A stretch of DNA of 64,000 nucleotides, taken from assembly GCA_000092065.1 (NCBI GenBank), contig CP000581.1; one strand, written 5' to 3'. Positions 8,748 through 28,286 of the stretch are shown here, one piece after another; the first letter of the stretch is position 1, and every line of letters starts with the position of its first letter. The notes below the pieces were generated by a model. The model saw only the letters and a list, made by a program, of their open reading frames with translations, was not told the DNA's origin and made no database searches. The stretch comes from Ostreococcus lucimarinus (taxonomy: Eukaryota). The position numbers and the translations under genes are program-made.

Positions 8748-8820
8748 GTTCGCGGCGAGGCGGCGACTGGGGTCGAGAGGTGGTTGCGTCGGTTGGGTCG
8801 CGCTCCGGCGGCGCTCCGTA

Positions 8821-9846
8821 CTATTGAACTTCTAAGACGCGTTGGCCTATGCGCATTAACAGCGCGCGACTCTTGAGCTTGGTGTACTCGTGAAGCTTGG
8901 CGTAGGCGTAGAGCGAACCGGCGAAGAGGGGAAGCCGCGCGCCCTTTAAGCCGTTGGCGGCGAAGACGAAGGCAAAGCTCGGGCCGACGAATTCGGCGAC
9001 GCGGCGAATTCCCTGAACTTGAATTTTGTTGTACATACTCACGATGAAGGCGAGCAAGCCGACCATGAGGTACCCACCGGTGAAAAAGTCGAGGTATTCG
9101 TGTATCGCGATGATGCGCGGGGCGTGGAACCAACTGTCGGCGCGACGCAAGTCGCGCCAAGGAGGGATCCAACGCACAAGACGATAGAAGAAGACTTCGA
9201 CGTAACACGTCGACGCGTGCAGCGTCACGCCTCGATGGGTCTGCACGCGCTTCATGGTGAGTTCTGCTAGGATGCGATCGATGCTCGGACGCGATCGCAA
9301 CATGTTTCGCGCTTGAAGAAACTGGCGTACGCGCGTCATAATGAGAAACGCCCCGTGGCTCGCCGCGCGACACAGCGCGGCGACGAAGAGCGTTAAGAGA
9401 AACACACCCACGACTGCGAACACCAACGCGGGCTCTTCTCGCTCTAAATAACGCGCCGCTCTCGTGCGCTCGAGATTGTACTGATATCCGCATTGATCGC
9501 AGCCGTAAAAGCTCCGAGGATTTCGACTGAGGTTTCTCCACTCGTTCAGGCACTCCACGTGCACCAACGCCATCGAACCTCGACACCGGCACGGCGAAAA
9601 CAACCGTCCGCCATCCTCACCCGAAAAACATATCCTACACAACCGTTCGTCGTCATCGTCGTCGTCGTCGTCGTCGTTCGTCGTCGCTCGGATTTCTCGA
9701 GCCGCTCGCGACGCGCGCGCGACGTTCTCGTCCTCGCGTTCCCTCGCCCTTCGCTCCTCCACCTCGCGTCGCTGCGCCTCCCATCGCGCGCGATGTTCCA
9801 ACGCTCTTCGTCGCAGCGCTTCCTGCTGCACGGTCGACATCGACAT
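8821..9846 (-). CDS. RING-CH (MARCH-type, C4HC3) zinc-finger membrane protein, E3 ubiquitin ligase-like
   Basis: CRICF....SPCRCRGS...VH.ECL..W.......C..C RING-variant motif, followed by 3-4 hydrophobic helices. A poly-Asp run (GTC)n precedes the finger. The first true ATG is at 9844-9846; the ORF-tool start at 9855 is a GTG codon. Confidence 0.6.
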   Translation of the reverse strand: MSMSTVQQEALRRRALEHRARWEAQRREVEERRAREREDENVARASRAAREIRATTNDDDDDDDDDERLCRICFSGEDGGRLFSPCRCRGSMALVHVECLNEWRNLSRNPRSFYGCDQCGYQYNLERTRAARYLEREEPALVFAVVGVFLLTLFVAALCRAASHGAFLIMTRVRQFLQARNMLRSRPSIDRILAELTMKRVQTHRGVTLHASTCYVEVFFYRLVRWIPPWRDLRRADSWFHAPRIIAIHEYLDFFTGGYLMVGLLAFIVSMYNKIQVQGIRRVAEFVGPSFAFVFAANGLKGARLPLFAGSLYAYAKLHEYTKLKSRALLMRIGQRVLEVQ

Positions 9847-9851
9847 CGCGT

Positions 9852-10193
9852 TCACGTCCCGCGCACGTCAAACCTCAAGTCTTCAAGCTTCAACCCAGCC
9901 TCGGCGAGGGATTGCTTCACCGCCATCTGATCGCTCACCGTCTTGATCCTTCGCGCGATATCGTCCACGGTCATGCGATGGACGTTAAACTGATCGCGCG
10001 CGCCGCTCGCGAACTCCACCGCGACGACCGGCGGCGCGGCGTCGTTGCGCACGCGCGGCTCGACGGCGCACTCGGGGTTGGATTTCGCCGCCTTCGCCGT
10101 GGTGACGCGGGCGAGGAACTCGCGCGCAGCCGTGCTGCGAGGATCGAGCGGGTTGAATTGCACGCGCACGCGCTTCAGGTGGCGCAAGGGCAT
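9852..10193 (-). CDS. MRPL53: Mitochondrial ribosomal protein mL53 (MRPL53-like)
   Basis: 113 aa from the internal ATG (10191-10193). Good alignment to human MRPL53 (LRHLKRVRVQFNPLDPRSTAAREFLARVTTAKAAKSNPECAV..VVAVEF vs [48 protein letters not shown]). Confidence 0.55.
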   Translation of the reverse strand: MPLRHLKRVRVQFNPLDPRSTAAREFLARVTTAKAAKSNPECAVEPRVRNDAAPPVVAVEFASGARDQFNVHRMTVDDIARRIKTVSDQMAVKQSLAEAGLKLEDLRFDVRGT

Positions 10194-10383
10194 GGAACGG
10201 GCGAACGCGCGGGTGACGACGCGCGCCCTCGAGTGCGGCGACGACGAACGGGACGACGGAGGTCGACGAGACGAGGGCGCTCGGATGGGGAATGAAGGAA
10301 TATTATACTGAATATTGAACCGCACACTGTGTGTCTATCTAGTTAACGCTATTGACTGCGTCCTACGCGAGCGCCGGTCGAAA

Positions 10384-11064
10384 TCAGAGGTTGAAGTCGG
10401 GAATGTCGTCGAGCGAAAAGTCTCGCGGCAGCGAGCTCGCGGGGTGGTCCGCGTCTCGAGGCATCAGGTCTTCCATGTGCTTCTCGAAATCGAGCTGCAA
10501 ATCCGCGACGGCTATGTTCATGGACGGCGTTTCCATCATCAACTTGGTGATTTCTTCGTGAAGATCGGGATTGGCGGTGTACGGCGTTCCGCCGAAGAGC
10601 GCGGCGTCCGCGACGCCGACGGCGCCGACCCCCGTCAAACCCGCATTTACTCCGGGCGTCAACACGGGTAATTCGCTCTTTTTCGCCCCCGACGCGTTCG
10701 ACGCGCGCGCCGGCGTCGCCGCCTCCACCGCGGGTGTCTTCGTTTGCGCGGTTTGTTTCCTCTTCGGCGACGCCTTCGCCTTCGCCTTCGCCTTCGCCTT
10801 CGGTTCGCCTCCTCCTCCCGCCTCCCCGTTCTTCTGCATCCACTCGTGCTGCTTCTCCAGCAGCGCGTTGAAGCGAATGATCTGATCCTTCACCTCCACC
10901 ATGACGCCGTACGCCTGAAAAAATTCCGGATTACTCTTCTCCAGCTGCCCCCACACCAGTTGCGTGAACACCGGGTCGATGTTCGCCAGCGCCTGCAGGT
11001 GCGCCACCACCTCCCTCTTCGACATGTACAACCGCAGCGAGCGTTCCAGCAAATTTTGCACCAT
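10384..11064 (-). CDS. Conserved plant-lineage protein (DUF3755-like: MVQNLLERSLRLYMSKREVV..IDP.FT.LVWGQLEKSNPEFFQAY)
   Basis: The conserved block starts at the ATG at 11062-11064. The C-terminal half has a K/A repeat (KAKAKAKA) and an acidic tail (..DFSLDDIPDFNL). The frame stays open upstream to 12090, antisense to RPC4, so an N-terminal extension cannot be excluded. Confidence 0.4.
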   Translation of the reverse strand: MVQNLLERSLRLYMSKREVVAHLQALANIDPVFTQLVWGQLEKSNPEFFQAYGVMVEVKDQIIRFNALLEKQHEWMQKNGEAGGGGEPKAKAKAKAKASPKRKQTAQTKTPAVEAATPARASNASGAKKSELPVLTPGVNAGLTGVGAVGVADAALFGGTPYTANPDLHEEITKLMMETPSMNIAVADLQLDFEKHMEDLMPRDADHPASSLPRDFSLDDIPDFNL

Positions 11065-11533
11065 GGCCACGTCGTTGACGTCCAGATTATTCGCCGCGCG
11101 CCACGGGTTCGCGCTCCACCCGTCTCCGCTCGCGTCGCCGCCCTCTCTCGCGCGTTCGCCCGCTCTCGCGCGTTCGCCCTCGTCCGCGCGCGCCGTCGTC
11201 GCTCTCGTCCCGTCGCCGTCGCGCCGCGATCGCTTTCGTCCCGTCGTCGTCGCTCGCGCGTCCGTCGCCGTCGTCGCGCGCGCGCTTCCGTCCGCGCGCG
11301 CCGTCGTCGCCCGCGCGCGCGCCCGCGGTCCCCGCCGCGGCGACGTCGCGCGCGCTCGCGTCGCGCCCTCGCGCTCGCGCGCGTCGCTCGCGCGCGCGGC
11401 GCGCGCGGTGGACATCCCGCGCGGCGTCGCGCGCGCGGGGCGTCGCGCGGCGTCGCGCGCGCGCTGTGACGCGCGCGCGACGTCGCGCGTCCCGGCGACG
11501 GCGCCGACGCGCGACCGCACGGCGCGGCGCGCG

Positions 11534-12703
11534 ATGTCGAGCGAGCGCGCGCGCGACGGACGCGGCGCGAGCGCGCGGTTGGGGAGCATACGCGCGAGCG
11601 CGGCGAGCGAGCGCGCGCGCGCGAGCGCGAGCGCGACGCGAGGGAAATCGGCGAGCGCGGGCGGCGGCGGCGATCGACGCGCGACGACGACGACGCGAGG
11701 CGCGCGCGGGAGCTCGAGGGAGCGGCGAGAGCGAGGCGAGGGCGCGACGCGCGCGAATCGCGCGGGCGCGGGCGAACGGACGAGCGCGGGCGAACGGACG
11801 GGCGAGGGCGAGGGCGAGGGCGAGGGCGAGGGCGAGGGCGCGGCGAGCGGGACGCCGCGACGCGCGGGACGCGCGGCGAGAGGCGCGAAAGAGACGACGA
11901 GCGCGAGCGGGGGGAAGCGCGGGAAAGCCGCGATCGGTGGTGCGTCGACGCGGAAAGCCGCGAGCGCGGTGGCGGTGAAGGAAGAAGTCGGCGACGCGGC
12001 GACGGCGGACGACGACGGCGAGGAGGACGGGTTGCCGGGGAAGGCGCCGGCGACGCCGTCGACGCCCGCGCGAGCGGCGGATGCGATCATGACGGACGCG
12101 CCGGTAGGCGTGCAGACGACGCCCGCGCGTCAGGCGCGGATGAGCAAGGCGAAGCAAGCGCAACTGGCGTTGGAGGAGGCTTCGAGGCGGATACAACCCG
12201 AACGCGCGACGACGGAGGAGATGTACGACGCCGAGGAAGATTGGACGGATAAGTCGCAGTATTACCCCACGGTGCTCACACGAAGTTCGCGCGAGGTCGA
12301 TGTCGGTGCCGTAGGCGATACGGTTCGCGAATCGACCGAGGACAAGTACGTGGTGCTTCAACTGCCGTCGGATTTACCGCTTCGCAAGCGCATCGCGAGC
12401 GAGGAGATGGACGTGGACGGCGTCGTCACGCTCAGAGACGATGATCCAGACGACGAAGATTCGGGTATGGTGCGTGGCGTGTCCGAACTCTCCAATGGAC
12501 AGCTCGGGGAATTGAAGATTCACGCCGACGGTTCGGCGAAGCTGTACATTGGAAACGCGGTGTTCGACGTCATGCGAGGAACGCCGTACCAACACTCGGA
12601 GCAGCTCGCTCGATTAGATGGGGATAGGCAACAGTGCGTCATCATGGGACCGACGATCGCGCGCATGACGTGCGTGCCGGACGTGACGCAGCTTTTGCTT
12701 TGA
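11534..12703 (+). CDS. RPC4: DNA-directed RNA polymerase III subunit RPC4 (C53-like)
   Basis: The C-terminal RPC4-family block (..SNGQLGELKIHADGSAKLYIGNAVFDVMRGTPYQHSEQLARLD...QCVIMGPTIARMTCVPDV) follows a basic, low-complexity N-terminus that includes a (GE)n stretch. ATG verified at 11534. Confidence 0.6.
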   Translation: MSSERARDGRGASARLGSIRASAASERARASASATRGKSASAGGGGDRRATTTTRGARGSSRERRERGEGATRANRAGAGERTSAGERTGEGEGEGEGEGEGAASGTPRRAGRAARGAKETTSASGGKRGKAAIGGASTRKAASAVAVKEEVGDAATADDDGEEDGLPGKAPATPSTPARAADAIMTDAPVGVQTTPARQARMSKAKQAQLALEEASRRIQPERATTEEMYDAEEDWTDKSQYYPTVLTRSSREVDVGAVGDTVRESTEDKYVVLQLPSDLPLRKRIASEEMDVDGVVTLRDDDPDDEDSGMVRGVSELSNGQLGELKIHADGSAKLYIGNAVFDVMRGTPYQHSEQLARLDGDRQQCVIMGPTIARMTCVPDVTQLLL

Positions 12704-20845: not shown

Positions 20846-22144
20846 CTAGTCTCTGCCGTACGCGTTGATCCAATCCACGAGGCCCATGCTTGACGTCTCC
20901 ACTCGAGCGTCCGATCCCGAGCCCGCGATGGCGCCGATCTCGGCCGCGCCAAAAGTGGCGATTCCAGTGAAGACACCGGGAGGCGAGACTCGCATACGAC
21001 GTGATGAAGCAACGCCAACGCCAGTGAGTACGGCGTCGTGTTCGTATACGTCTAGAAAGGCAAAGCTCGTCTCGCCCTCCGCCGCCTCGAGCATCGCCTC
21101 AAGCGTCACGTAATGAACATCATTTCGATAATGATAGTGTCCGGGATGGTCGTGTCCTGCCAAACAAATCTTCACGCACCCACTGCTTTCTATGAGATCG
21201 GAGACCTCGTCGCTGTTCCAGGCGCTCATCTGATACCGAGCCGCGTCTCTGTGCAAGGCGTTGTGCGACGCGACGATGACTCGCTCGCGTTTCGCCGCCG
21301 CGTCGTTCAGCTCGTCCCGCAACCAGTCAAATTGAACGGGACCGATGCCTCCGCCCCAAGGAACGACATCCTCACGACCCTCGTCCACGGCGTCTTGCGC
21401 GAATCGCATCGCCGCATCGAACTCTGGCGCGTCTCGAGATACGTACCGCGGATTCAAATCCGTCGTGTCCAAAACGATTAATCGCCACCCTCTCGGCATA
21501 CTCGCGCTGTAATACGCCGCCTCGGCGTTCACGGCGCTTAAAAACACCTCTTTCCCGACGTTACAATCGTGATTCCCCACGCAGTGGAACATCCGCACCT
21601 TCGACGCGTTCACCAAATCCGCGACGACCGCCAAGTCTGTTCCGTTCTTTTCCGTCGTCGACGCGCGCATCGGCGTCCGCAGCACCGGCTTCGTCGTCTT
21701 ATCGTCCTCGTTGTACCCATCAAACAAATCACCCAAGTTCACGATTCCGCTCAGCGTCGCCGCTTCGTCTTCGAACGCGCGAATGCACTCTCGCAGTCGT
21801 CGCTCGCTCGCCCTGAACCGCTTCGTCCGCGTCGCGTCGTCCTCCCGCGTCTCGTCCACCTTATCGCCGTACTGCGCGTCCGCGAACACGCCCAGTCGAA
21901 AGCACCGCGTCTTCTCCACGCTCTTCAGCCGCGCGCTCGAGCCGACCGCGTTCACGCGCGGCGCCCGCGTCGTCCTCGCGTCGTCGTCGTCGTCGTCGTC
22001 GCCATCCTTCGTCCTCGCGCGCGCCCTCGTCGTCGCCGCGCCCGCGCGCGAACGCGCCGCACCGTTCGACCGCGTCGGCGGCGCTCGAAGCGCGCCGGCG
22101 CGCGTCGCCGTCGACATCGCGTCGCGCTCTGGCGCGCGCGCCAT
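20846..22144 (-). CDS. Calcineurin-like metallophosphoesterase (ADP-ribose/CDP-alcohol diphosphatase, ADPRM-like)
   Basis: FRLGVFADAQYGD, GDLFDG, HCVGNHD and ..ASHNALHR..AGHDHPGHYH metallophosphoesterase motifs. ATG verified at 22142-22144. Confidence 0.6.
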   Translation of the reverse strand: MARAPERDAMSTATRAGALRAPPTRSNGAARSRAGAATTRARARTKDGDDDDDDDARTTRAPRVNAVGSSARLKSVEKTRCFRLGVFADAQYGDKVDETREDDATRTKRFRASERRLRECIRAFEDEAATLSGIVNLGDLFDGYNEDDKTTKPVLRTPMRASTTEKNGTDLAVVADLVNASKVRMFHCVGNHDCNVGKEVFLSAVNAEAAYYSASMPRGWRLIVLDTTDLNPRYVSRDAPEFDAAMRFAQDAVDEGREDVVPWGGGIGPVQFDWLRDELNDAAAKRERVIVASHNALHRDAARYQMSAWNSDEVSDLIESSGCVKICLAGHDHPGHYHYRNDVHYVTLEAMLEAAEGETSFAFLDVYEHDAVLTGVGVASSRRMRVSPPGVFTGIATFGAAEIGAIAGSGSDARVETSSMGLVDWINAYGRD

Positions 22145-22202
22145 CGTGATTTCGAGTCGACCTCACTCGTCGTCGCGTCGCGCCGCGCGCGCGGGCGGCG
22201 TC

Positions 22203-25200
22203 ATGTTCGGCGGCGACGGCGCGGACGGTGCGAATCCGTTCGGCGCGCCGCGCGCGCGCGCGTTCGGGACGAGCGCGCGCGACGCGAGCGCGAGTCCGTT
22301 CGGCGCGAGCGACCCGTTCGGGCGCGGCGACGCGAGCGCGACGACGGCGACGACGGCGCCGGGAGGGGCGCCGGGCGCGGGCGGAGGGACGGCGACGCCG
22401 TTCGGGGGGTTCGGGGGGGGCGCGCCGGCGGCGAACGCGCCGGGGGGGGTCGGAGGCGCGAGCGGCGGGTTCGGCGGGTTCGGCGCGAGCGCGAGCGCGA
22501 GTCCGTTCGGGAGCGGGACGGGCGCGGCGGCGCACGGAGCGAGCGGTGGGGGTGGGTCGGCGTTTGGAGGCGGTGCGAACGCGTTCGGGGGTGGAGGGGC
22601 GTTCGGCGCGAGCGCGCCCGCGGCGAGCGCGAGTCCGTTCGGCGCGCCCGCGAGTCCGTTCGGGACGGGCGCGCCCGCGGCGAGCGCGAGTCCTTTCGGC
22701 GCGAGCGCGAGTCCTTTCGGCGCGAGCGCGAGTCCTTTCGGCGCGAGCGCGAGTCCTTTCGGCGCGAGCGCGAGTCCTTTCGGCGCGAGCGCGCCGCAAA
22801 CGGCGCCGTCGACGCCGTTTGCGCCCGTCGCGAGCTCGCCGTTCGGCGGCGGCCCATCGTCGACGACCGCGCTGGTGTTCGGCGCGTTCGGGGCGGCGTC
22901 GCCGAGCTCGACGCCGTCGCCTTTCGCGGTGAAGGTACCAGAACCATCGGCGGCGGCGTCGCCGTTCGGTGGCGGTGGGTTCAGCTTTAGCGCGTCTCCG
23001 ACGACTGCGCCCGCGAGTCCTTTCGGCGCGAGTCCTTTCGGCGCGGCGCCAGCGGTATCTTCGGCTCCGACCGGCGGGATCTTCGGCGTAGCGCCCACGA
23101 CAGGGGGGTTGAGCGCCACGGCATCGCCTTTTGCGCCTAAACCGGCCACATCTGGTTTCGCGTTCGGCGGCGCGAATCCACCAGAGGCGGAGAAACGAGA
23201 CGCCATCGCAAGTATTCCTGCGTTTGGTGGCGGCGCGAAAGCTTTCGTCCCGCCGAAGCCAAAACCCATTGCGGATAGATTAAACTTAGCTAGTGAAGCG
23301 CCATCGACGTCAAATGCTGCGGGCGATGAGACGGGCGAAATCACCACCTCGAGTGGTCACATCGTGGGTACGTGCGATTTGATGTGCCCGGCGAAGGAGA
23401 GAGAATTCAGGAGCGCGAACGGCGACTTGGAAGTGTTCGAGAGAGTCGACCCAGAGGATCGCATGAAGTCTCATCCAGATTTGTGCATTAAAAAATATAC
23501 GCGCATCGTTGATGAAATTACGCCTGACATGGTTCGAACGAAGAAAGGTTTACAGTTGGCGATAGATCAACTTTGGCGAATTCTCGACGCCGAGGACAAA
23601 GACTTCATGACAAAGAGCAAATTTCTTTGGGACAGGCTGCGATCTATTCGCCAGGATTTGAATTTACAGCAAATCACGGATTCGTTCGCGGTAAAGCTAT
23701 TAGAGCAAATGGTTCGTTACACCATCCTAGCCGAACACGAGCTGTGCGAGGCGACAGCGTCGGCGACGAACCCGGACGGGCACAATTCTCACTTGAATGT
23801 TGAGCAGCTGACGAAGACACTCACGTCTCTTCGACACATGTACGACGATCATGCCGATCGTGGTCAGCAACTCGGTATTGATGCCGAGGCCGAGATGTTC
23901 TGTTATCAGCTCTTGCTTCGCATCGACTCGCACGGACGCTACGCCGTGCAACGGTCGGAGATGTTGAACGATTTAAGGAGCGTCCGCGCTGAGGTGCTAA
24001 AGCATCGTGACGTTCAATTCGCGCTCCAGTGTCATCGTGCATATCACGAAAACAACGTCGCCCGATTCTTTCATCTTGTGAAAAAAGCGACGTACGTTCA
24101 AGCTTGCTGTCTGCACAAGTTCTTCAATAGCATGCGTGGTAAAGCGCTCGAGGTCATGAACACGACGTACGGCAAGTTCATCATGCCGATTACCGAAATC
24201 GCGCGTCTTCTGCATACGGATGATATGGAGACGGAGGCGTTGTGTATACATCACGGATTAAACGTCACCAGAGGTAAAGCCGGGGATAAACCACCTGCGG
24301 TGACTATGCGCGAATCGTCGTACATTTCTCCCGCGGAAGAGTTTCCAATCTCGCGCTCAGATTTAATCATGAACAAGCGAGCCGCTTCTTACTTGCTTGA
24401 GATCGTCGGTAAGGACGAATCGGTTAGGATTGCTGCCAAAACGCTCCCAACTATGAGTACACCCAAAACTACGCCACAATTGTCCGAAGCGGATAAACGC
24501 AAGCAGCAGGCTGATGAACTCCGAGCAAAGATTGCGTTGCGCGAATCGCAGCTCGAAAAGGAACGAGCCGCCATTCTCGCCAAGAAGAAGGAGATCGAAG
24601 AACGCAAGGCTGCGGAAAAGAAGGCTGCGGAAGAAGCTGAGCGAAAGGCTAAGGAAGCAGAGGAGGCGGCAAGGCGAGCGGAAGAAGAAGCGAAGGCTGC
24701 CGAGGCGAAGGCGAGAGCTGAGGCTGAAGCTGCGGAAGCCGAGCGAAGACGTCTCGCAGAAGAAGCCGCTCGAGCCAAAGCCGAAGCTGAGGCGAAGGCG
24801 CTCGCTGAGGCTGAGCGACGAAAAGCAGAAGAGGAAGCGGAACGTCAACGAGTACTTGCCGAGGAACGAGCTCGAGAGACAGCTGCCGCCGCACACCGGG
24901 CTGCAATCGCAAAAGCCGAAGCCGAAGCTCGCGCGCGCCGCGCTGCCGAGGCTGAGGCTGAGCGACTCCGTCTTATCGCTGAAGAGAACGCTCGACGTCA
25001 AGCGGCTGAGGCAAAAGCAGCGCGAAAGCGAGCGAAAAGGCACATGGCGATCCGCCGACTCACATTTTCTCTTTGGCGTATGAACTCGAAGGAGTTCAAG
25101 CGAGAGCGGTTGATCGGCGAAGCGCTCGCCATGGCAAGTCCTGCGCCGGCGCTGAATCTCGGCGGCAAGGCTCTCCTCGACGCGAGTGCGGCATCTGAGC

Positions 25201-26873
25201 GTCCGACGGACGCGCTTGCGCAACTTCGAAAGAAGATTGAATCTGTCCGCTCGCCAGAATTCGGCGTGCCTTTGGATGTTCCGCAAACCGTTGGATTGGC
25301 GCTGCACGAAGCTGCGGCCACCGCGGCGCCGAGCGCTCTTGTTTGGAAGTGTCTCATCTGCACTGGCGCGGAGGCAGACTCCGGAGCGAGCGCGTCATCA
25401 CGACCGAGGACGACTACAGCGACAATCGTCGCGGAGTGGCTGCGCACGAAACTTTCTCGGGGCGGAAGCGCACACGCGACAGAGCCTGGCACTGGGACGA
25501 TTTTGTCGCTCTACGGCGCCCGACTTCCACTTCCAGGAACTGATGAGGAAAATGATTACATGATGGGTCCTTTGGCCTGGATCGTCGTCAGAGACGTGCC
25601 AGCAATGATGGAAAATTCCAAAGGTTCCAACGCGGGCGCGTCATCGGCGATTTTCGTTCTCGATTGCGGTGGCGGCACGTGTGAGAGTCACGAGCTGAAG
25701 CGTCTTCGAGCGTTCAGCTCAGCGGTGAAGAGGAGTGAAGCGCCGCTTGTAATCTTCGTCGCATCGAGAGACAACACGAATCAGAACGATATCAAGAAAA
25801 GTATCACAAGTTCCGGCATCGAGGGCGCGTTGGTGATATTTCTTCCTCCGAAAGGTCCGGAAGAATGGTCCGACGACAAGTTGTCCGAAGTGCTGGTTTG
25901 GACGGCGGAACGCGCGCCAAAGGCGCCTCGACGCAGGATCGCATATCTTTCGGCAGAAATTGAAGAAGCGTTACGACCAGGCTATGTCAACTTGACGGTC
26001 AAGCCACGTGTGTCTCCGCGAGCGTGCATACGCGCGTTCAACGATGCCCTCGACCAGCTGGAGCATAAAATACTCGAAGCCGCGCAAACTGAGGACGGCG
26101 CTGAATGGCCGCCGGTTGAGATCGGTCTCGTCAACGCGGCGCTTCCGCCGCCTGGCTGGAGATCCAAGTCCCGTCGAACGAAAGTGTTAGATTTGTTGCA
26201 TTCCGTGCGCCTGCCAGATTTCGAGGCTGGAGAGAAGCCCGTGCGCGCTTTCATCGATTACGTCGCAGCGGTGTTACCGCACTACCCGAAAGACTACGGC
26301 CAATGCTTGCTCGCGCAAGCGCGATACGACCCGCATTTCCACAAGCTGCAAGACATTCCGTGGGTGACGCTGTTCCAAACTCTCATCACACTTCTGCTGA
26401 GCGGATTAGAGAGCCAAAGCCGCGACGCGTGCATCTACCTTCCTCCGGGTCATCCCTCGTACGACTTCACGCCGTACGAGCCCGAGCCGGAATTGCTCGC
26501 CGAACGCGCGTCTTCGAAGACGCCGACCGAAGCCTTTGACGACGCCACGAACCGCAAGCGCAAGCACGAGGCGCTCGCCACCGCCATCCCCGAAGCCAGT
26601 CGGTTCGAAGAGATCGACTCCGCACCCTTGGACAACGTTCGCGCCGTCTTGGACGATTTACGTCGCGACGTCGACGCGCACGCGCGCTTCGCCGACGCCT
26701 CCGAGCGTTGGCTCGCCGCGCTCGCGACCAACACCCCCGGCACCGCCGAAGACCCCGAATCGTTCGCCGACGCCGGCGAATCGGACGCGCATCTGACCGC
26801 GTTCAACGCGTCCGTCGCCGCCGAGCGCGCCGCCGAGGCGCGTCTCCGGCTTCTCCTCGACGCCGCGCCGTAG
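22203..26873 (+). CDS. SAC3: SAC3/GANP-family protein (TREX-2 mRNA export scaffold) with N-terminal FG repeats and a long E/A/K-rich charged helix
   Basis: SAC3/GANP domain: GTCDLMCPAKEREFR......FE..D......P.LC.KKY.R.......P...R....L....D.LW.I. The N-terminus carries about 40 FG/SPFGAS repeats. Residues roughly 930-1110 are (AEAKA/EERKA)n. The start is the first ATG downstream of the divergent neighbour (22203); the ORF-tool start at 21711 overlaps that gene. Confidence 0.75.
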   Translation: MFGGDGADGANPFGAPRARAFGTSARDASASPFGASDPFGRGDASATTATTAPGGAPGAGGGTATPFGGFGGGAPAANAPGGVGGASGGFGGFGASASASPFGSGTGAAAHGASGGGGSAFGGGANAFGGGGAFGASAPAASASPFGAPASPFGTGAPAASASPFGASASPFGASASPFGASASPFGASASPFGASAPQTAPSTPFAPVASSPFGGGPSSTTALVFGAFGAASPSSTPSPFAVKVPEPSAAASPFGGGGFSFSASPTTAPASPFGASPFGAAPAVSSAPTGGIFGVAPTTGGLSATASPFAPKPATSGFAFGGANPPEAEKRDAIASIPAFGGGAKAFVPPKPKPIADRLNLASEAPSTSNAAGDETGEITTSSGHIVGTCDLMCPAKEREFRSANGDLEVFERVDPEDRMKSHPDLCIKKYTRIVDEITPDMVRTKKGLQLAIDQLWRILDAEDKDFMTKSKFLWDRLRSIRQDLNLQQITDSFAVKLLEQMVRYTILAEHELCEATASATNPDGHNSHLNVEQLTKTLTSLRHMYDDHADRGQQLGIDAEAEMFCYQLLLRIDSHGRYAVQRSEMLNDLRSVRAEVLKHRDVQFALQCHRAYHENNVARFFHLVKKATYVQACCLHKFFNSMRGKALEVMNTTYGKFIMPITEIARLLHTDDMETEALCIHHGLNVTRGKAGDKPPAVTMRESSYISPAEEFPISRSDLIMNKRAASYLLEIVGKDESVRIAAKTLPTMSTPKTTPQLSEADKRKQQADELRAKIALRESQLEKERAAILAKKKEIEERKAAEKKAAEEAERKAKEAEEAARRAEEEAKAAEAKARAEAEAAEAERRRLAEEAARAKAEAEAKALAEAERRKAEEEAERQRVLAEERARETAAAAHRAAIAKAEAEARARRAAEAEAERLRLIAEENARRQAAEAKAARKRAKRHMAIRRLTFSLWRMNSKEFKRERLIGEALAMASPAPALNLGGKALLDASAASERPTDALAQLRKKIESVRSPEFGVPLDVPQTVGLALHEAAATAAPSALVWKCLICTGAEADSGASASSRPRTTTATIVAEWLRTKLSRGGSAHATEPGTGTILSLYGARLPLPGTDEENDYMMGPLAWIVVRDVPAMMENSKGSNAGASSAIFVLDCGGGTCESHELKRLRAFSSAVKRSEAPLVIFVASRDNTNQNDIKKSITSSGIEGALVIFLPPKGPEEWSDDKLSEVLVWTAERAPKAPRRRIAYLSAEIEEALRPGYVNLTVKPRVSPRACIRAFNDALDQLEHKILEAAQTEDGAEWPPVEIGLVNAALPPPGWRSKSRRTKVLDLLHSVRLPDFEAGEKPVRAFIDYVAAVLPHYPKDYGQCLLAQARYDPHFHKLQDIPWVTLFQTLITLLLSGLESQSRDACIYLPPGHPSYDFTPYEPEPELLAERASSKTPTEAFDDATNRKRKHEALATAIPEASRFEEIDSAPLDNVRAVLDDLRRDVDAHARFADASERWLAALATNTPGTAEDPESFADAGESDAHLTAFNASVAAERAAEARLRLLLDAAP
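22615..22800 (+). repeat. 21-bp tandem repeat (gcgagcgcgagtcctttcggc, about 6 copies) encoding (SASPFGA)n within the SAC3 FG domain
   Basis: Direct reading at 22680-22800 shows five perfect consecutive copies plus diverged flanking copies. Confidence 0.85.
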
Positions 26874-27047
26874 CCACGCCTCGTCGCGCGAGACGAATGT
26901 CGAATGCATCACAATCGCGCGCGCCGCGCCGCGCCGCGCCACCGCACGCGCCGCGCCCGGCGCGACCGCACCGGTGATCGAAATCGCCCGCGCCCGCGCC
27001 CGTCGCCCGCGCGCGACGCCGCGCCCGCGCGCGCGCGTCGTCGACGC

Positions 27048-28286
27048 ATGAAGACGGACGCCGCGCCGGCGGCGGCGGCGCCCGACGCCCCGAAGACGCT
27101 CTACCAGGGCGTCGAGCGCGATGGCTTCGGCATGCGCCTGCTCACGAGACTCGGATGGCGCGAGGGCCGCGGACTGGGGAAGAACCAGGACGGGATCGCG
27201 AGGCACATTCACGCGCGAAAGCGACAGGTGGGGACGGGGGTGGGCGCGGACGCGCGAAACGACGCGAGCGGCGCGAACGCGGTGGATTGGACGATGAACA
27301 CGGTCGCGTTCGATGACGTGCTGCGATCGTTGAATAGAACGCACAGCGCGGAAGAGTTGGAACGCGCGGCGAACGCGGAGAAGGCGTCGTCGTCGGATGA
27401 GGACGAGGACGAGGGGGCGAAGACGAAGACGCGAGGCGAGGCGAAGAAGCGAAAGATGACGAAGGAGGAGAAGAAGGCGGCGAAGAAGGCGGCGAAGAGG
27501 GCGAAAAAGAATGAAATCGTCGTGAATCGGTCGGTGGTGAGTCACGCGGGGAGGTATCATAAGCGAGAGTCGCAAAAGATGGTGTCGAATTATAGCGCGG
27601 AGGATCTCGGGGCGATTTTGGGCGGCGGATTCGTCGCGTTGCCAGAGGTGCGCGCGGACAACGCGTCCGCGTCCGCGAGCGCGTCGGACGCGGACGAGTC
27701 CATCCCGACGCCGACGAATAAGGAGAAAGAAAAACCCAAGAGACTCGTCGTCGTGGAGCGACCGAAGTGGGTCTTCGATCCGCCGCCGGAGAGCTGGTGG
27801 GGCTGGCGCGTCGGATTTCGCCCGGAGGGTCACGGTAAAAAACCTGAAGACGCCGACGCCGACGCACTCGAACGCAAGCGAGGCTTCGACGAGGACGATC
27901 AAGTGAACTTGTTTCAAGACACGCACGCGGGTGCGAATAAGAATCGACGCGGTTTGGGGGCTGGCCAAGGCCGCGACGCCGCGGCTGATTTTTCGGGAAC
28001 GAAGAAGACGTTCGGCGAAGGCGACGAGGTCAGCGACGCCGAGAAAGCCGCCGCGGCGAAAGCAAAGAAGGTGAAGTGGCTCAAAATCGGCGAGAAGATC
28101 CTCGAAAAGGCGTCGGGATCGATGAAGACGAAAAAATTCATCGAAAAGGTTTTGAAAAAGGCTGAGTGCGCGGCCGACGACTGCGACGCCGTCTATCGCG
28201 ACGCCGCGTTCCACTTCCTCTCTCGCAGCGGCGCGTTCACCAGTCTCGAAGAAGACGTCGTGAAGTTCACCGGCAAGAAGGCGTGA
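27048..28286 (+). CDS. G-patch domain protein, PinX1-like (N-terminal G-patch, Lys-rich C-terminus)
   Basis: YQGVERDGFGMRLLTRLGWREGRGLGKNQDGIARHIHARKRQVGTGVG matches the G-patch consensus and the PinX1 N-terminal arrangement. It is followed by a K/E-rich tail. ATG at 27048. Confidence 0.55.
   Translation: MKTDAAPAAAAPDAPKTLYQGVERDGFGMRLLTRLGWREGRGLGKNQDGIARHIHARKRQVGTGVGADARNDASGANAVDWTMNTVAFDDVLRSLNRTHSAEELERAANAEKASSSDEDEDEGAKTKTRGEAKKRKMTKEEKKAAKKAAKRAKKNEIVVNRSVVSHAGRYHKRESQKMVSNYSAEDLGAILGGGFVALPEVRADNASASASASDADESIPTPTNKEKEKPKRLVVVERPKWVFDPPPESWWGWRVGFRPEGHGKKPEDADADALERKRGFDEDDQVNLFQDTHAGANKNRRGLGAGQGRDAAADFSGTKKTFGEGDEVSDAEKAAAAKAKKVKWLKIGEKILEKASGSMKTKKFIEKVLKKAECAADDCDAVYRDAAFHFLSRSGAFTSLEEDVVKFTGKKA

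Follow-up and report, generated by a model that had tools for sequence, protein, structure and literature searches.

We analysed a 64,000-nt stretch of chromosome 1 of Ostreococcus lucimarinus CCE9901 (referred to below as the window; all coordinates are window positions) and concentrated on two neighbouring minus-strand genes, one encoding the mitochondrial ribosomal protein mL53 and the other a membrane E3-ligase-like protein with a RING-CH (RINGv) domain, which are separated by only 5 nt. We consider it somewhat better than an even chance (roughly 55%) that the two genes give rise to one dicistronic mRNA and two proteins, with the second open reading frame (ORF) being reached by leaky scanning in Ostreococcus and with a possible reinitiation component, especially in Bathycoccus. 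We infer this co-transcription and mode of translation from the identities and coordinates of the genes, their pairing across lineages, their start contexts and the distribution of ATGs, all of which were read directly from the DNA.

Two separately conserved genes at one junction

The first ORF of the pair (ORF1) matched the Pfam family MRP_L53 (PF10780) with 55.9 bits (cut-off 25.3 bits) over all 53 model positions, and its product was identical to ABO94171.1 / XP_001415879.1 of O. lucimarinus CCE9901, for which UniRef and NCBI give the name mL53. The second (ORF2) matched Pfam RINGv with 48.9 bits at residues 70-119 (cut-off 21.6 bits). This C4HC3 RING-variant domain is followed by hydrophobic segments, which were judged by eye from the translation, and its closest solved relatives are the RING-CH domains of Doa10, c-MIR/MARCH and K3. 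A mitochondrial (MARCH5-like) identity of the RINGv protein was also considered, but the similarity is only of the generic RING-CH kind (Doa10, MARCH, K3). On the minus strand the junction between the two ORFs reads ...ttt gac gtg cgc ggg acg TGA acgcg ATG tcg ATG tcg acc..., with RINGv lying in the -1 frame relative to mL53. A previous reading of this DNA from its letters and translations (the sequence-only reading) had described the same two genes; its coordinates, strand, relative frame and 5-nt spacer were all correct when the sequence was re-read, its gene identities hold, and the mL53 homology is genuine.

The gap between mL53 and RINGv is the smallest of the 21 same-strand gaps in our ORF map of the window, which is a rough map of 36 ORFs picked by length and by GC3 > GC2 periodicity (G+C content at third versus second codon positions). 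The same-strand gaps run 5, 30, 38, 125, 146, 162, 183, 187, 190 nt and up, with a median of about 260 nt, and the convergent gaps in the window measure 61-208 nt.

Both ORFs have conserved ends. The N-terminus MPLRHLKR of mL53 is common to all 11 aligned orthologues, and in the alignment the length of 113 aa and the position of the stop codon are invariant in all Ostreococcus lineages. For RINGv, an N-terminal block, EALRRRALEHRARWEA, begins 8 residues past the first Met and is shared by every orthologue. Because this block is conserved even in distant orthologues which stand alone in their genomes, the translation of RINGv must start at 9846 or at the second in-frame ATG (9840-9838); after 9840 the next in-frame ATG falls inside the RING domain. 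The alignments make it evident that purifying selection acts on both ORFs. At NCBI the RINGv gene is represented by XP_001415878.1 (“predicted protein, partial”, 313 aa), which starts at VEERRA and is without the first 28 residues, including the conserved block; this model is truncated and the gene model should begin at 9846.

The RINGv protein (P0027) also carries a poly-Asp run (nine D, encoded by a GAC/GAT repeat at 9645-9670 on the minus strand) which sits before the RING domain. This run is length-polymorphic among natural variants (338-344 aa), and at this run a chimeric Logan contig passes from the RINGv N-terminus to a Myb-domain protein.

Conservation of the pairing across lineages

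Orthologous loci were collected by exact-protein look-ups and one metagenome scan. The sequence-only reading had suggested a comparison of such loci for the same adjacency, and we found it kept in eight Ostreococcus junction types and in Bathycoccus. The spacer measures 5 nt in the O. lucimarinus group, 10 nt in its close relative L055, 11 nt in O. tauri (GCA_000214015.2, GCA_002158475.1), 14 nt in the L016 group, 2 nt in the L025/L035 group, 22 nt in the L050/L056 group and 32 nt in both the L046 and the L052 groups, all of these being Ostreococcus, and 4 nt in Bathycoccus (TAA tgca ATG). None of these nine junction types has an ATG within the spacer. Since the gap is 2-32 nt in every Bathycoccaceae lineage sampled, the tight pairing is no mere product of chance.

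This closeness is kept at considerable sequence distance: across the compared lineages mL53 is 54-79% identical and RINGv 32-64%, and the nucleotide identity of mL53 within Ostreococcus is 67-79%. The RINGv proteins of O. lucimarinus and Bathycoccus share 32% identity in a full-length alignment (E = 7e-60). The Bathycoccus cluster includes CAL6345297.1 of B. prasinos and its loci have a GC content of about 0.50.

The upstream neighbour of the unit, a gene with an A_thal_3526 domain, is likewise syntenic. In Ostreococcus other than O. lucimarinus the unit has flanks of ordinary size, with 127-230 nt upstream and 285-360 nt downstream, the latter being the distance from RINGv to the next same-strand gene, CSN2, in O. 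tauri and the other Ostreococcus clades, versus 73 nt in O. lucimarinus. Within Ostreococcus the spacers which flank the unit therefore span 73-360 nt, and the spacer between the two ORFs is never longer than 32 nt. In Bathycoccus mL53 lies about 500 nt from a divergent GST gene.

In Mamiellaceae-like relatives the two genes are unlinked and each stands alone. The stand-alone mL53 gene (L059-L062, 54% identical) has a convergent RCC1-like gene downstream, and the stand-alone RINGv orthologues (P0018 and P0016, on L020-23 and L053-54) have a divergent upstream neighbour 110-310 nt away. It follows from this distribution that the pairing arose in or before the common ancestor of Ostreococcus and Bathycoccus.

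Two further observations concern Bathycoccus mL53. In its cluster (P0136 and others; L063-L066) models of 84 aa are abundant (427 contigs, among them an NCBI contig of 1.38 Mb) beside the 127-aa form, and some Bathycoccus strains have an extra ATG which overlaps the mL53 stop codon (ttTAATGc), just 5' of the RINGv start.

Start contexts and distribution of ATGs

The two start codons differ in context. In all nine Ostreococcus representatives the mL53 AUG is preceded by a pyrimidine (T or C) at -3 and followed by C at +4, although the bases around it have turned over among the lineages (cgttcc, cgtcgc, tcctcg, tctcgc, taccat and gttccc). For the RINGv AUG the base at -3 is a purine (A or G) in 9/9 of the same representatives, and in O. 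lucimarinus its context is aacgcgATGt, with G at -3. For comparison, 27 of the 36 first ATGs in the window (75%) have a purine at -3. The stand-alone mL53 orthologue L059, which is the only unpaired lineage (n = 1) available as a control for both start context and ATGs, has A at -3 (gggaggATGc).

We also compared the number of out-of-frame ATGs with that expected from a within-gene permutation of synonymous codons, which preserves the protein sequence and codon usage of each gene. A first null using pooled codon usage had been dropped, as nearly all control genes scored under expectation; the within-gene permutation was substituted, together with an empirical baseline ratio of 0.60 taken from the 34 other genes of the window (221 observed vs 368 expected). 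In ORF1 of eight paired lineages there was 1 out-of-frame ATG vs 14.7 expected (ratio 0.07, at about five homologous sites), and in ORF2 of seven Ostreococcus lineages there were 43 vs 63.4 expected (ratio 0.68). Corrected for the 0.60 baseline, the deficit in ORF1 has a Poisson P of ~0.0014, a value which treats the lineages as independent. The deficit lies mainly in nt 114-228 of ORF1 (0 observed vs 8.9 expected), that is 120-230 nt 5' of the RINGv AUG. In the stand-alone mL53 orthologue the homologous GAT GAT G site contains two out-of-frame ATGs.

No excess conservation of synonymous sites was found in mL53: of 65 invariant degenerate codons 11 were identical in all seven lineages, with no cluster in the 3' half. 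This argues against a conserved promoter embedded in mL53, although only weakly, since a promoter can function without being conserved.

One dicistronic mRNA as the favoured reading

In the reading that we favour, mL53 and RINGv would be a single transcription unit with its promoter in the intergenic region 5' of mL53. In Ostreococcus some scanning 40S subunits would initiate at the mL53 AUG, which is poorly placed with its pyrimidine at -3 and its C at +4, and the remaining subunits would bypass this AUG and the two in-frame internal AUGs (C at -3) and would initiate at the first well-placed AUG, with a purine at -3, which is the RINGv start. Ribosomes which finish mL53 may also reinitiate at the RINGv AUG, which is possible because stop and start are only 2-32 nt apart; this route would probably carry more weight in Bathycoccus, which fits reinitiation better than it fits leaky scanning. 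A dicistronic mRNA was among the explanations offered by the sequence-only reading, and the comparative signals favour it, although mainly by way of leaky scanning and not by the reinitiation which was named there. The most AT-rich 20-mer upstream of any gene in the window, ttcaatattcagtataatat (10319-10300), is found in the region 5' of mL53.

Nuclear bicistronic mRNAs have been documented in Chlamydomonas, Chromochloris, Dunaliella and Auxenochlorella (PMC7896298, PMC11291117), and their leaky scanning has been shown experimentally in Chlamydomonas, Chromochloris and Auxenochlorella (PMC11291117). The reported hallmarks are a weak ORF1 Kozak context, a short 5' untranslated region (UTR) and depletion of ATGs, and the inter-ORF regions have medians of 212-260 nt but can be as short as 14 nt or even have overlapping stop and start codons (PMC7896298, PMC11291117). 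The weak mL53 start, the good RINGv start and the apparent avoidance of out-of-frame ATGs match the published leaky-scanning bicistrons of green algae. These bicistrons, such as REX1S-REX1B with its 14-nt inter-ORF region and the TOM22 and OST4 loci (Gallaher et al. 2021, PMC7896298; Duenas et al. 2024/2025, PMC11291117/PMC11892635), resemble the mL53-RINGv pair in having a small ORF1 and a larger ORF2 on one strand, separately terminated and conserved ORFs in unrelated frames, a very short ATG-free inter-ORF region and conservation across genera, and also an apparent depletion of out-of-frame ATGs 5' of ORF2 and, as far as Ostreococcus is concerned, a weak ORF1 Kozak context and a good ORF2 context. 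The pair differs from them in that its co-transcription is predicted from sequence, in that the in-frame Met codons of ORF1 are not depleted and in that the Bathycoccus start is not weak.

In Chlorophyceae and Trebouxiophyceae the existence of bicistronic nuclear mRNAs is established. For the Mamiellophyceae, which are ecologically dominant picoplankton, the evidence given for O. lucimarinus and Micromonas in those studies is only that the orthologues of the Chlamydomonas genes are “colinear” (PMC7896298, PMC11291117). A search for L53, mL53, MRPL53 or a RING-CH partner gave no match in the accessible part of the supplementary lists of the leaky-scanning paper, and our literature search turned up no study of long-read transcripts from Ostreococcus, Bathycoccus or Micromonas (Mamiellophyceae). 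The mL53-RINGv pair is thus absent from the published lists, within that part, and is a new candidate for an established class of algal bicistron.

A number of observations weigh against a leaky-scanning dicistron. ORF1 of Bathycoccus has G at -3, so that the weak start is not seen there, and inside it there are four in-frame ATGs, of which two have a good context. In Ostreococcus the scanning ribosomes would have to bypass two in-frame Met codons of ORF1, of which Met74 is invariant and Met90 varies among lineages. With 0.88 ATGs per 100 nt in total, ORF1 falls inside the range of the window, and its in-frame Met codons are not depleted. It should also be noted that the out-of-frame ATG statistic is overdispersed, with one unrelated gene of the window having 0 observed vs 6.4 expected, and that its basis is about five homologous dipeptide sites in lineages which are related.

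No RNA-derived contigs of the locus were found, since every multi-gene contig that was fetched keeps the CSN2 intron and is on this ground taken to be derived from DNA; the contigs L024, L027, L055, L057 and L058 are too short for their DNA or RNA origin to be judged, and the protein cluster lists contain no MMETSP transcript of mL53 or RINGv. The Logan contig L024 (1,583 nt, nearly identical to O. tauri) extends from 50 nt 5' of the mL53 ATG to 93 nt past the RINGv stop codon and has both ORFs inside. If it were a transcript, this would imply an mL53 5' UTR of at least 50 nt, out of an upstream intergenic region of 190 nt in all. This extent lends the dicistron weak support, as L024 is without a poly(A) tail, a random DNA fragment of its length which contains the RINGv ORF would end in both flanking intergenic regions 29% of the time, and short-read assemblers are reported to concatenate closely spaced genes in these genomes (PMC4815162).

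Alternative explanations

The two genes could instead be two overlapping monocistronic units, with the promoter and transcription start site of RINGv inside the mL53 coding sequence and the poly(A) site of mL53 in or past the RINGv ORF, and their spacing would then be a matter of extreme compaction. We regard this as possible but on the whole unlikely. Overlapping and multigene transcripts occur in microsporidia and nucleomorphs. In the related Micromonas overlapping UTRs are documented, and its convergent pairs are similar to the present locus in their extreme density and in spacers which are too short for a promoter and a terminator (PMC4815162). The O. lucimarinus genome is itself very compact, as seen in the convergent gaps of the window and in the GC-rich 73-nt gap between RINGv and CSN2. 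The window also contains, on the plus strand, a SAC3/GANP ORF of 1,696 aa (21783-26873) which is followed after 30 nt by an unrelated G-patch ORF of 460 aa (26904-28286). Both have C at -3 of their first ATG, and the SAC3/GANP ORF holds 40 ATGs. As no scanning mechanism could cross these 1,696 codons, O. lucimarinus very probably places promoters or UTRs inside neighbouring genes. There is a further pair with a gap of only 38 nt, and the weak Kozak signature is missing from Bathycoccus ORF1. The sequence-only reading had stressed that the junction leaves no room for a promoter; while the spacer is indeed only 5 nt, the SAC3/GANP and G-patch pair makes clear that such a gap is not by itself an argument for a dicistron.

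What an embedded promoter does not predict is the weak ORF1 start in 9/9 Ostreococcus representatives vs the strong start in the unpaired lineage. Neither does it predict the avoidance of ATGs 120-230 nt 5' of the RINGv ATG, unless the RINGv 5' UTR is unusually long. The lack of synonymous-site constraint in mL53 and the failure of the spacer to expand beyond 32 nt in any lineage, next to flanking spacers of 73-360 nt, also speak against it. The overlapping pairs in Micromonas are described as by-products of compaction without translation signatures (PMC4815162), whereas at this locus start contexts and ATGs change with the paired state. We also looked for an AT-rich promoter patch inside mL53, but this was abandoned as the statistic cannot separate upstream regions from the coding-sequence null, with a median of 0.40 in both. 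If the RINGv promoter were embedded in mL53, the locus would be an extreme yet ordinary outcome of compaction.

Another version of the dicistronic mRNA has RINGv made mainly by termination-reinitiation after an ORF1 of 113-127 codons, with the AUG 2-32 nt downstream and with this coupling kept since the Ostreococcus/Bathycoccus ancestor; as the main route to RINGv we find it improbable. It would explain why the distance from stop to start is ≤ 32 nt in all lineages, a limit which leaky scanning does not need, and it agrees with the good ORF1 start context in Bathycoccus. In-frame AUGs are tolerated in ORF1 (two internal ones in Ostreococcus and four in Bathycoccus) and out-of-frame AUGs are nearly absent, an asymmetry which fits reinitiation because only in-frame starts bring ribosomes to the ORF1 stop beside the ORF2 AUG. 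However, reinitiation is generally inefficient after ORFs of more than about 30 codons unless special elements are present, and it does not predict the weak ORF1 context of Ostreococcus. The junction RNA folds no better than shuffled sequence (z = -0.03), and at the 3' end of ORF1 there is no conserved nucleotide motif beyond coding constraint. Bicistronic expression has been obtained in Chlamydomonas with synthetic spacers of 6-10 nt (Onishi and Pringle, cited in PMC11291117). In green-algal experiments the output of ORF2 was inversely related to the strength of the ORF1 Kozak context, which argues against reinitiation (PMC11291117). Both these synthetic bicistrons and the calicivirus reinitiation that depends on a termination upstream ribosomal binding site (TURBS) share with mL53-RINGv a stop codon and next AUG which are a few nt apart and the tolerance of in-frame upstream AUGs. 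At this locus, however, ORF1 is long (113-127 codons), and no TURBS-like element was identified, complementarity to 18S rRNA not having been searched. Were reinitiation the main route, the locus would be a case of natural and efficient long-ORF reinitiation on a nuclear mRNA, a mechanism disfavoured by experiments in other green algae, and the output of a membrane E3 ligase would be tied stoichiometrically to the synthesis of a mitoribosomal protein.

The last of the explanations in the sequence-only reading, a single protein fused by an unrecognised intron, a -1 frameshift or readthrough, or else a RINGv start elsewhere, is extremely improbable and we reject it: in its favour are just the closeness of the ORFs, the -1 frame in O. 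lucimarinus and the 6/9 spacers which are congruent to 2 mod 3, while against it stand the 113-aa mL53 with its invariant stop in all Ostreococcus lineages, stand-alone RINGv orthologues which start with the same conserved block and have no mL53 domain, and an ORF2 frame which is closed 7 codons 5' of its ATG. The closed frame confines a frameshift to the 16-nt window gtgcgcgggacgtga, in which, as in its homologues, there is no X XXY YYZ slippery heptamer, and the fold given above offers no structure; Rfam and tRNA scans at the junction gave sub-threshold chance matches only and no tRNA. Across the stop codon the sole GT...AG candidate spans 30 nt; it lacks conservation, and splicing it out would leave the frame unrestored. 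An apparently conserved relation between the reading frames (2, 5, 11 and 14 nt are all 2 mod 3) was considered as well and is explained by descent, with start shifts in threes; it is broken by the spacers of 4, 10 and 22 nt, which change the relative frame of ORF2.

If mL53 and RINGv are indeed read from one mRNA, this would be a lineage-specific bicistron originating in the Bathycoccaceae ancestor. The locus would then act as a natural experiment: in paired lineages the mL53 start is weak and out-of-frame ATGs are absent, and in the unpaired Mamiellaceae-like lineage the start is strong and the homologous site carries ATGs. It would show how translation signals are remodelled when genome compaction joins two genes in one transcription unit. 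Gene finders which require a minimum intergenic distance will mis-model such pairs. The natural 2-14-nt inter-ORF region could also act as a compact co-expression element in Ostreococcus engineering.

Neighbouring genes and other features

The features of the locus are given in Table 1.

Table 1 Features of the mL53-RINGv locus on the O. lucimarinus window
Feature	Position	Strand	Details
Gap between RINGv stop and ATG of CSN2	8748..8820	-	73 nt, GC-rich; no AT-rich patch
ORF2, RING-CH (RINGv) membrane E3-ligase-like protein	8821..9846	-	341 aa; ATG 9846-9844, TAG 8823-8821
Inter-ORF spacer	9847..9851	-	acgcg, 5 nt; no ATG
ORF1, mitochondrial ribosomal protein mL53	9852..10193	-	113 aa; ATG 10193-10191, TGA 9854-9852; XP_001415879.1
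TGA closing the ORF2 frame	9868..9870	-	7 codons 5' of the ORF2 ATG; confines a frameshift fusion to a 16-nt window
Internal in-frame ATG of ORF1, Met90	9924..9926	-	context gatcagATGg, C at -3; varies among lineages
Internal in-frame ATG of ORF1, Met74	9972..9974	-	context catcgcATGa, C at -3; invariant
ORF1 start context	10191..10199	-	cgttccATGc; T at -3, C at +4; weak Kozak-like
Intergenic region 5' of mL53	10194..10383	-	190 nt; presumed to hold the promoter and 5' UTR of the unit as well as the 3' end of the gene upstream

Downstream of RINGv, CSN2 encodes a PCI domain and has one intron, with exon 1 running from 8747 on the minus strand. In O. lucimarinus the 3' end of RINGv and the promoter of CSN2 must extend into coding sequence, or a third gene may belong to the unit. 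In another Ostreococcus clade two metagenome gene calls, P0015 (543 aa) and P0019 (391 aa), extend from RINGv across frameshifted sequence and into the N-terminus of CSN2 (MSDDDDYGFTYSDEDE...); these look like artefacts of assembly or of the gene caller and not like true fusions.

Elsewhere in the window, the SAC3/GANP and G-patch pair must be explained by a promoter that is embedded, by UTRs that overlap or by a splice that went unrecognised. The second tight tandem pair is on the minus strand and consists of a 382-aa ORF (57183-56035) and, after 38 nt, a 149-aa ORF (55996-55547), neither with a Pfam match; these could be tight tandem genes or one gene with an unrecognised intron. Upstream of the unit, the gene with the A_thal_3526 domain (10384-12090) contains an (aaggcg)5 hexanucleotide repeat (10771-10800, minus strand), which encodes KAKAKAKAKA.

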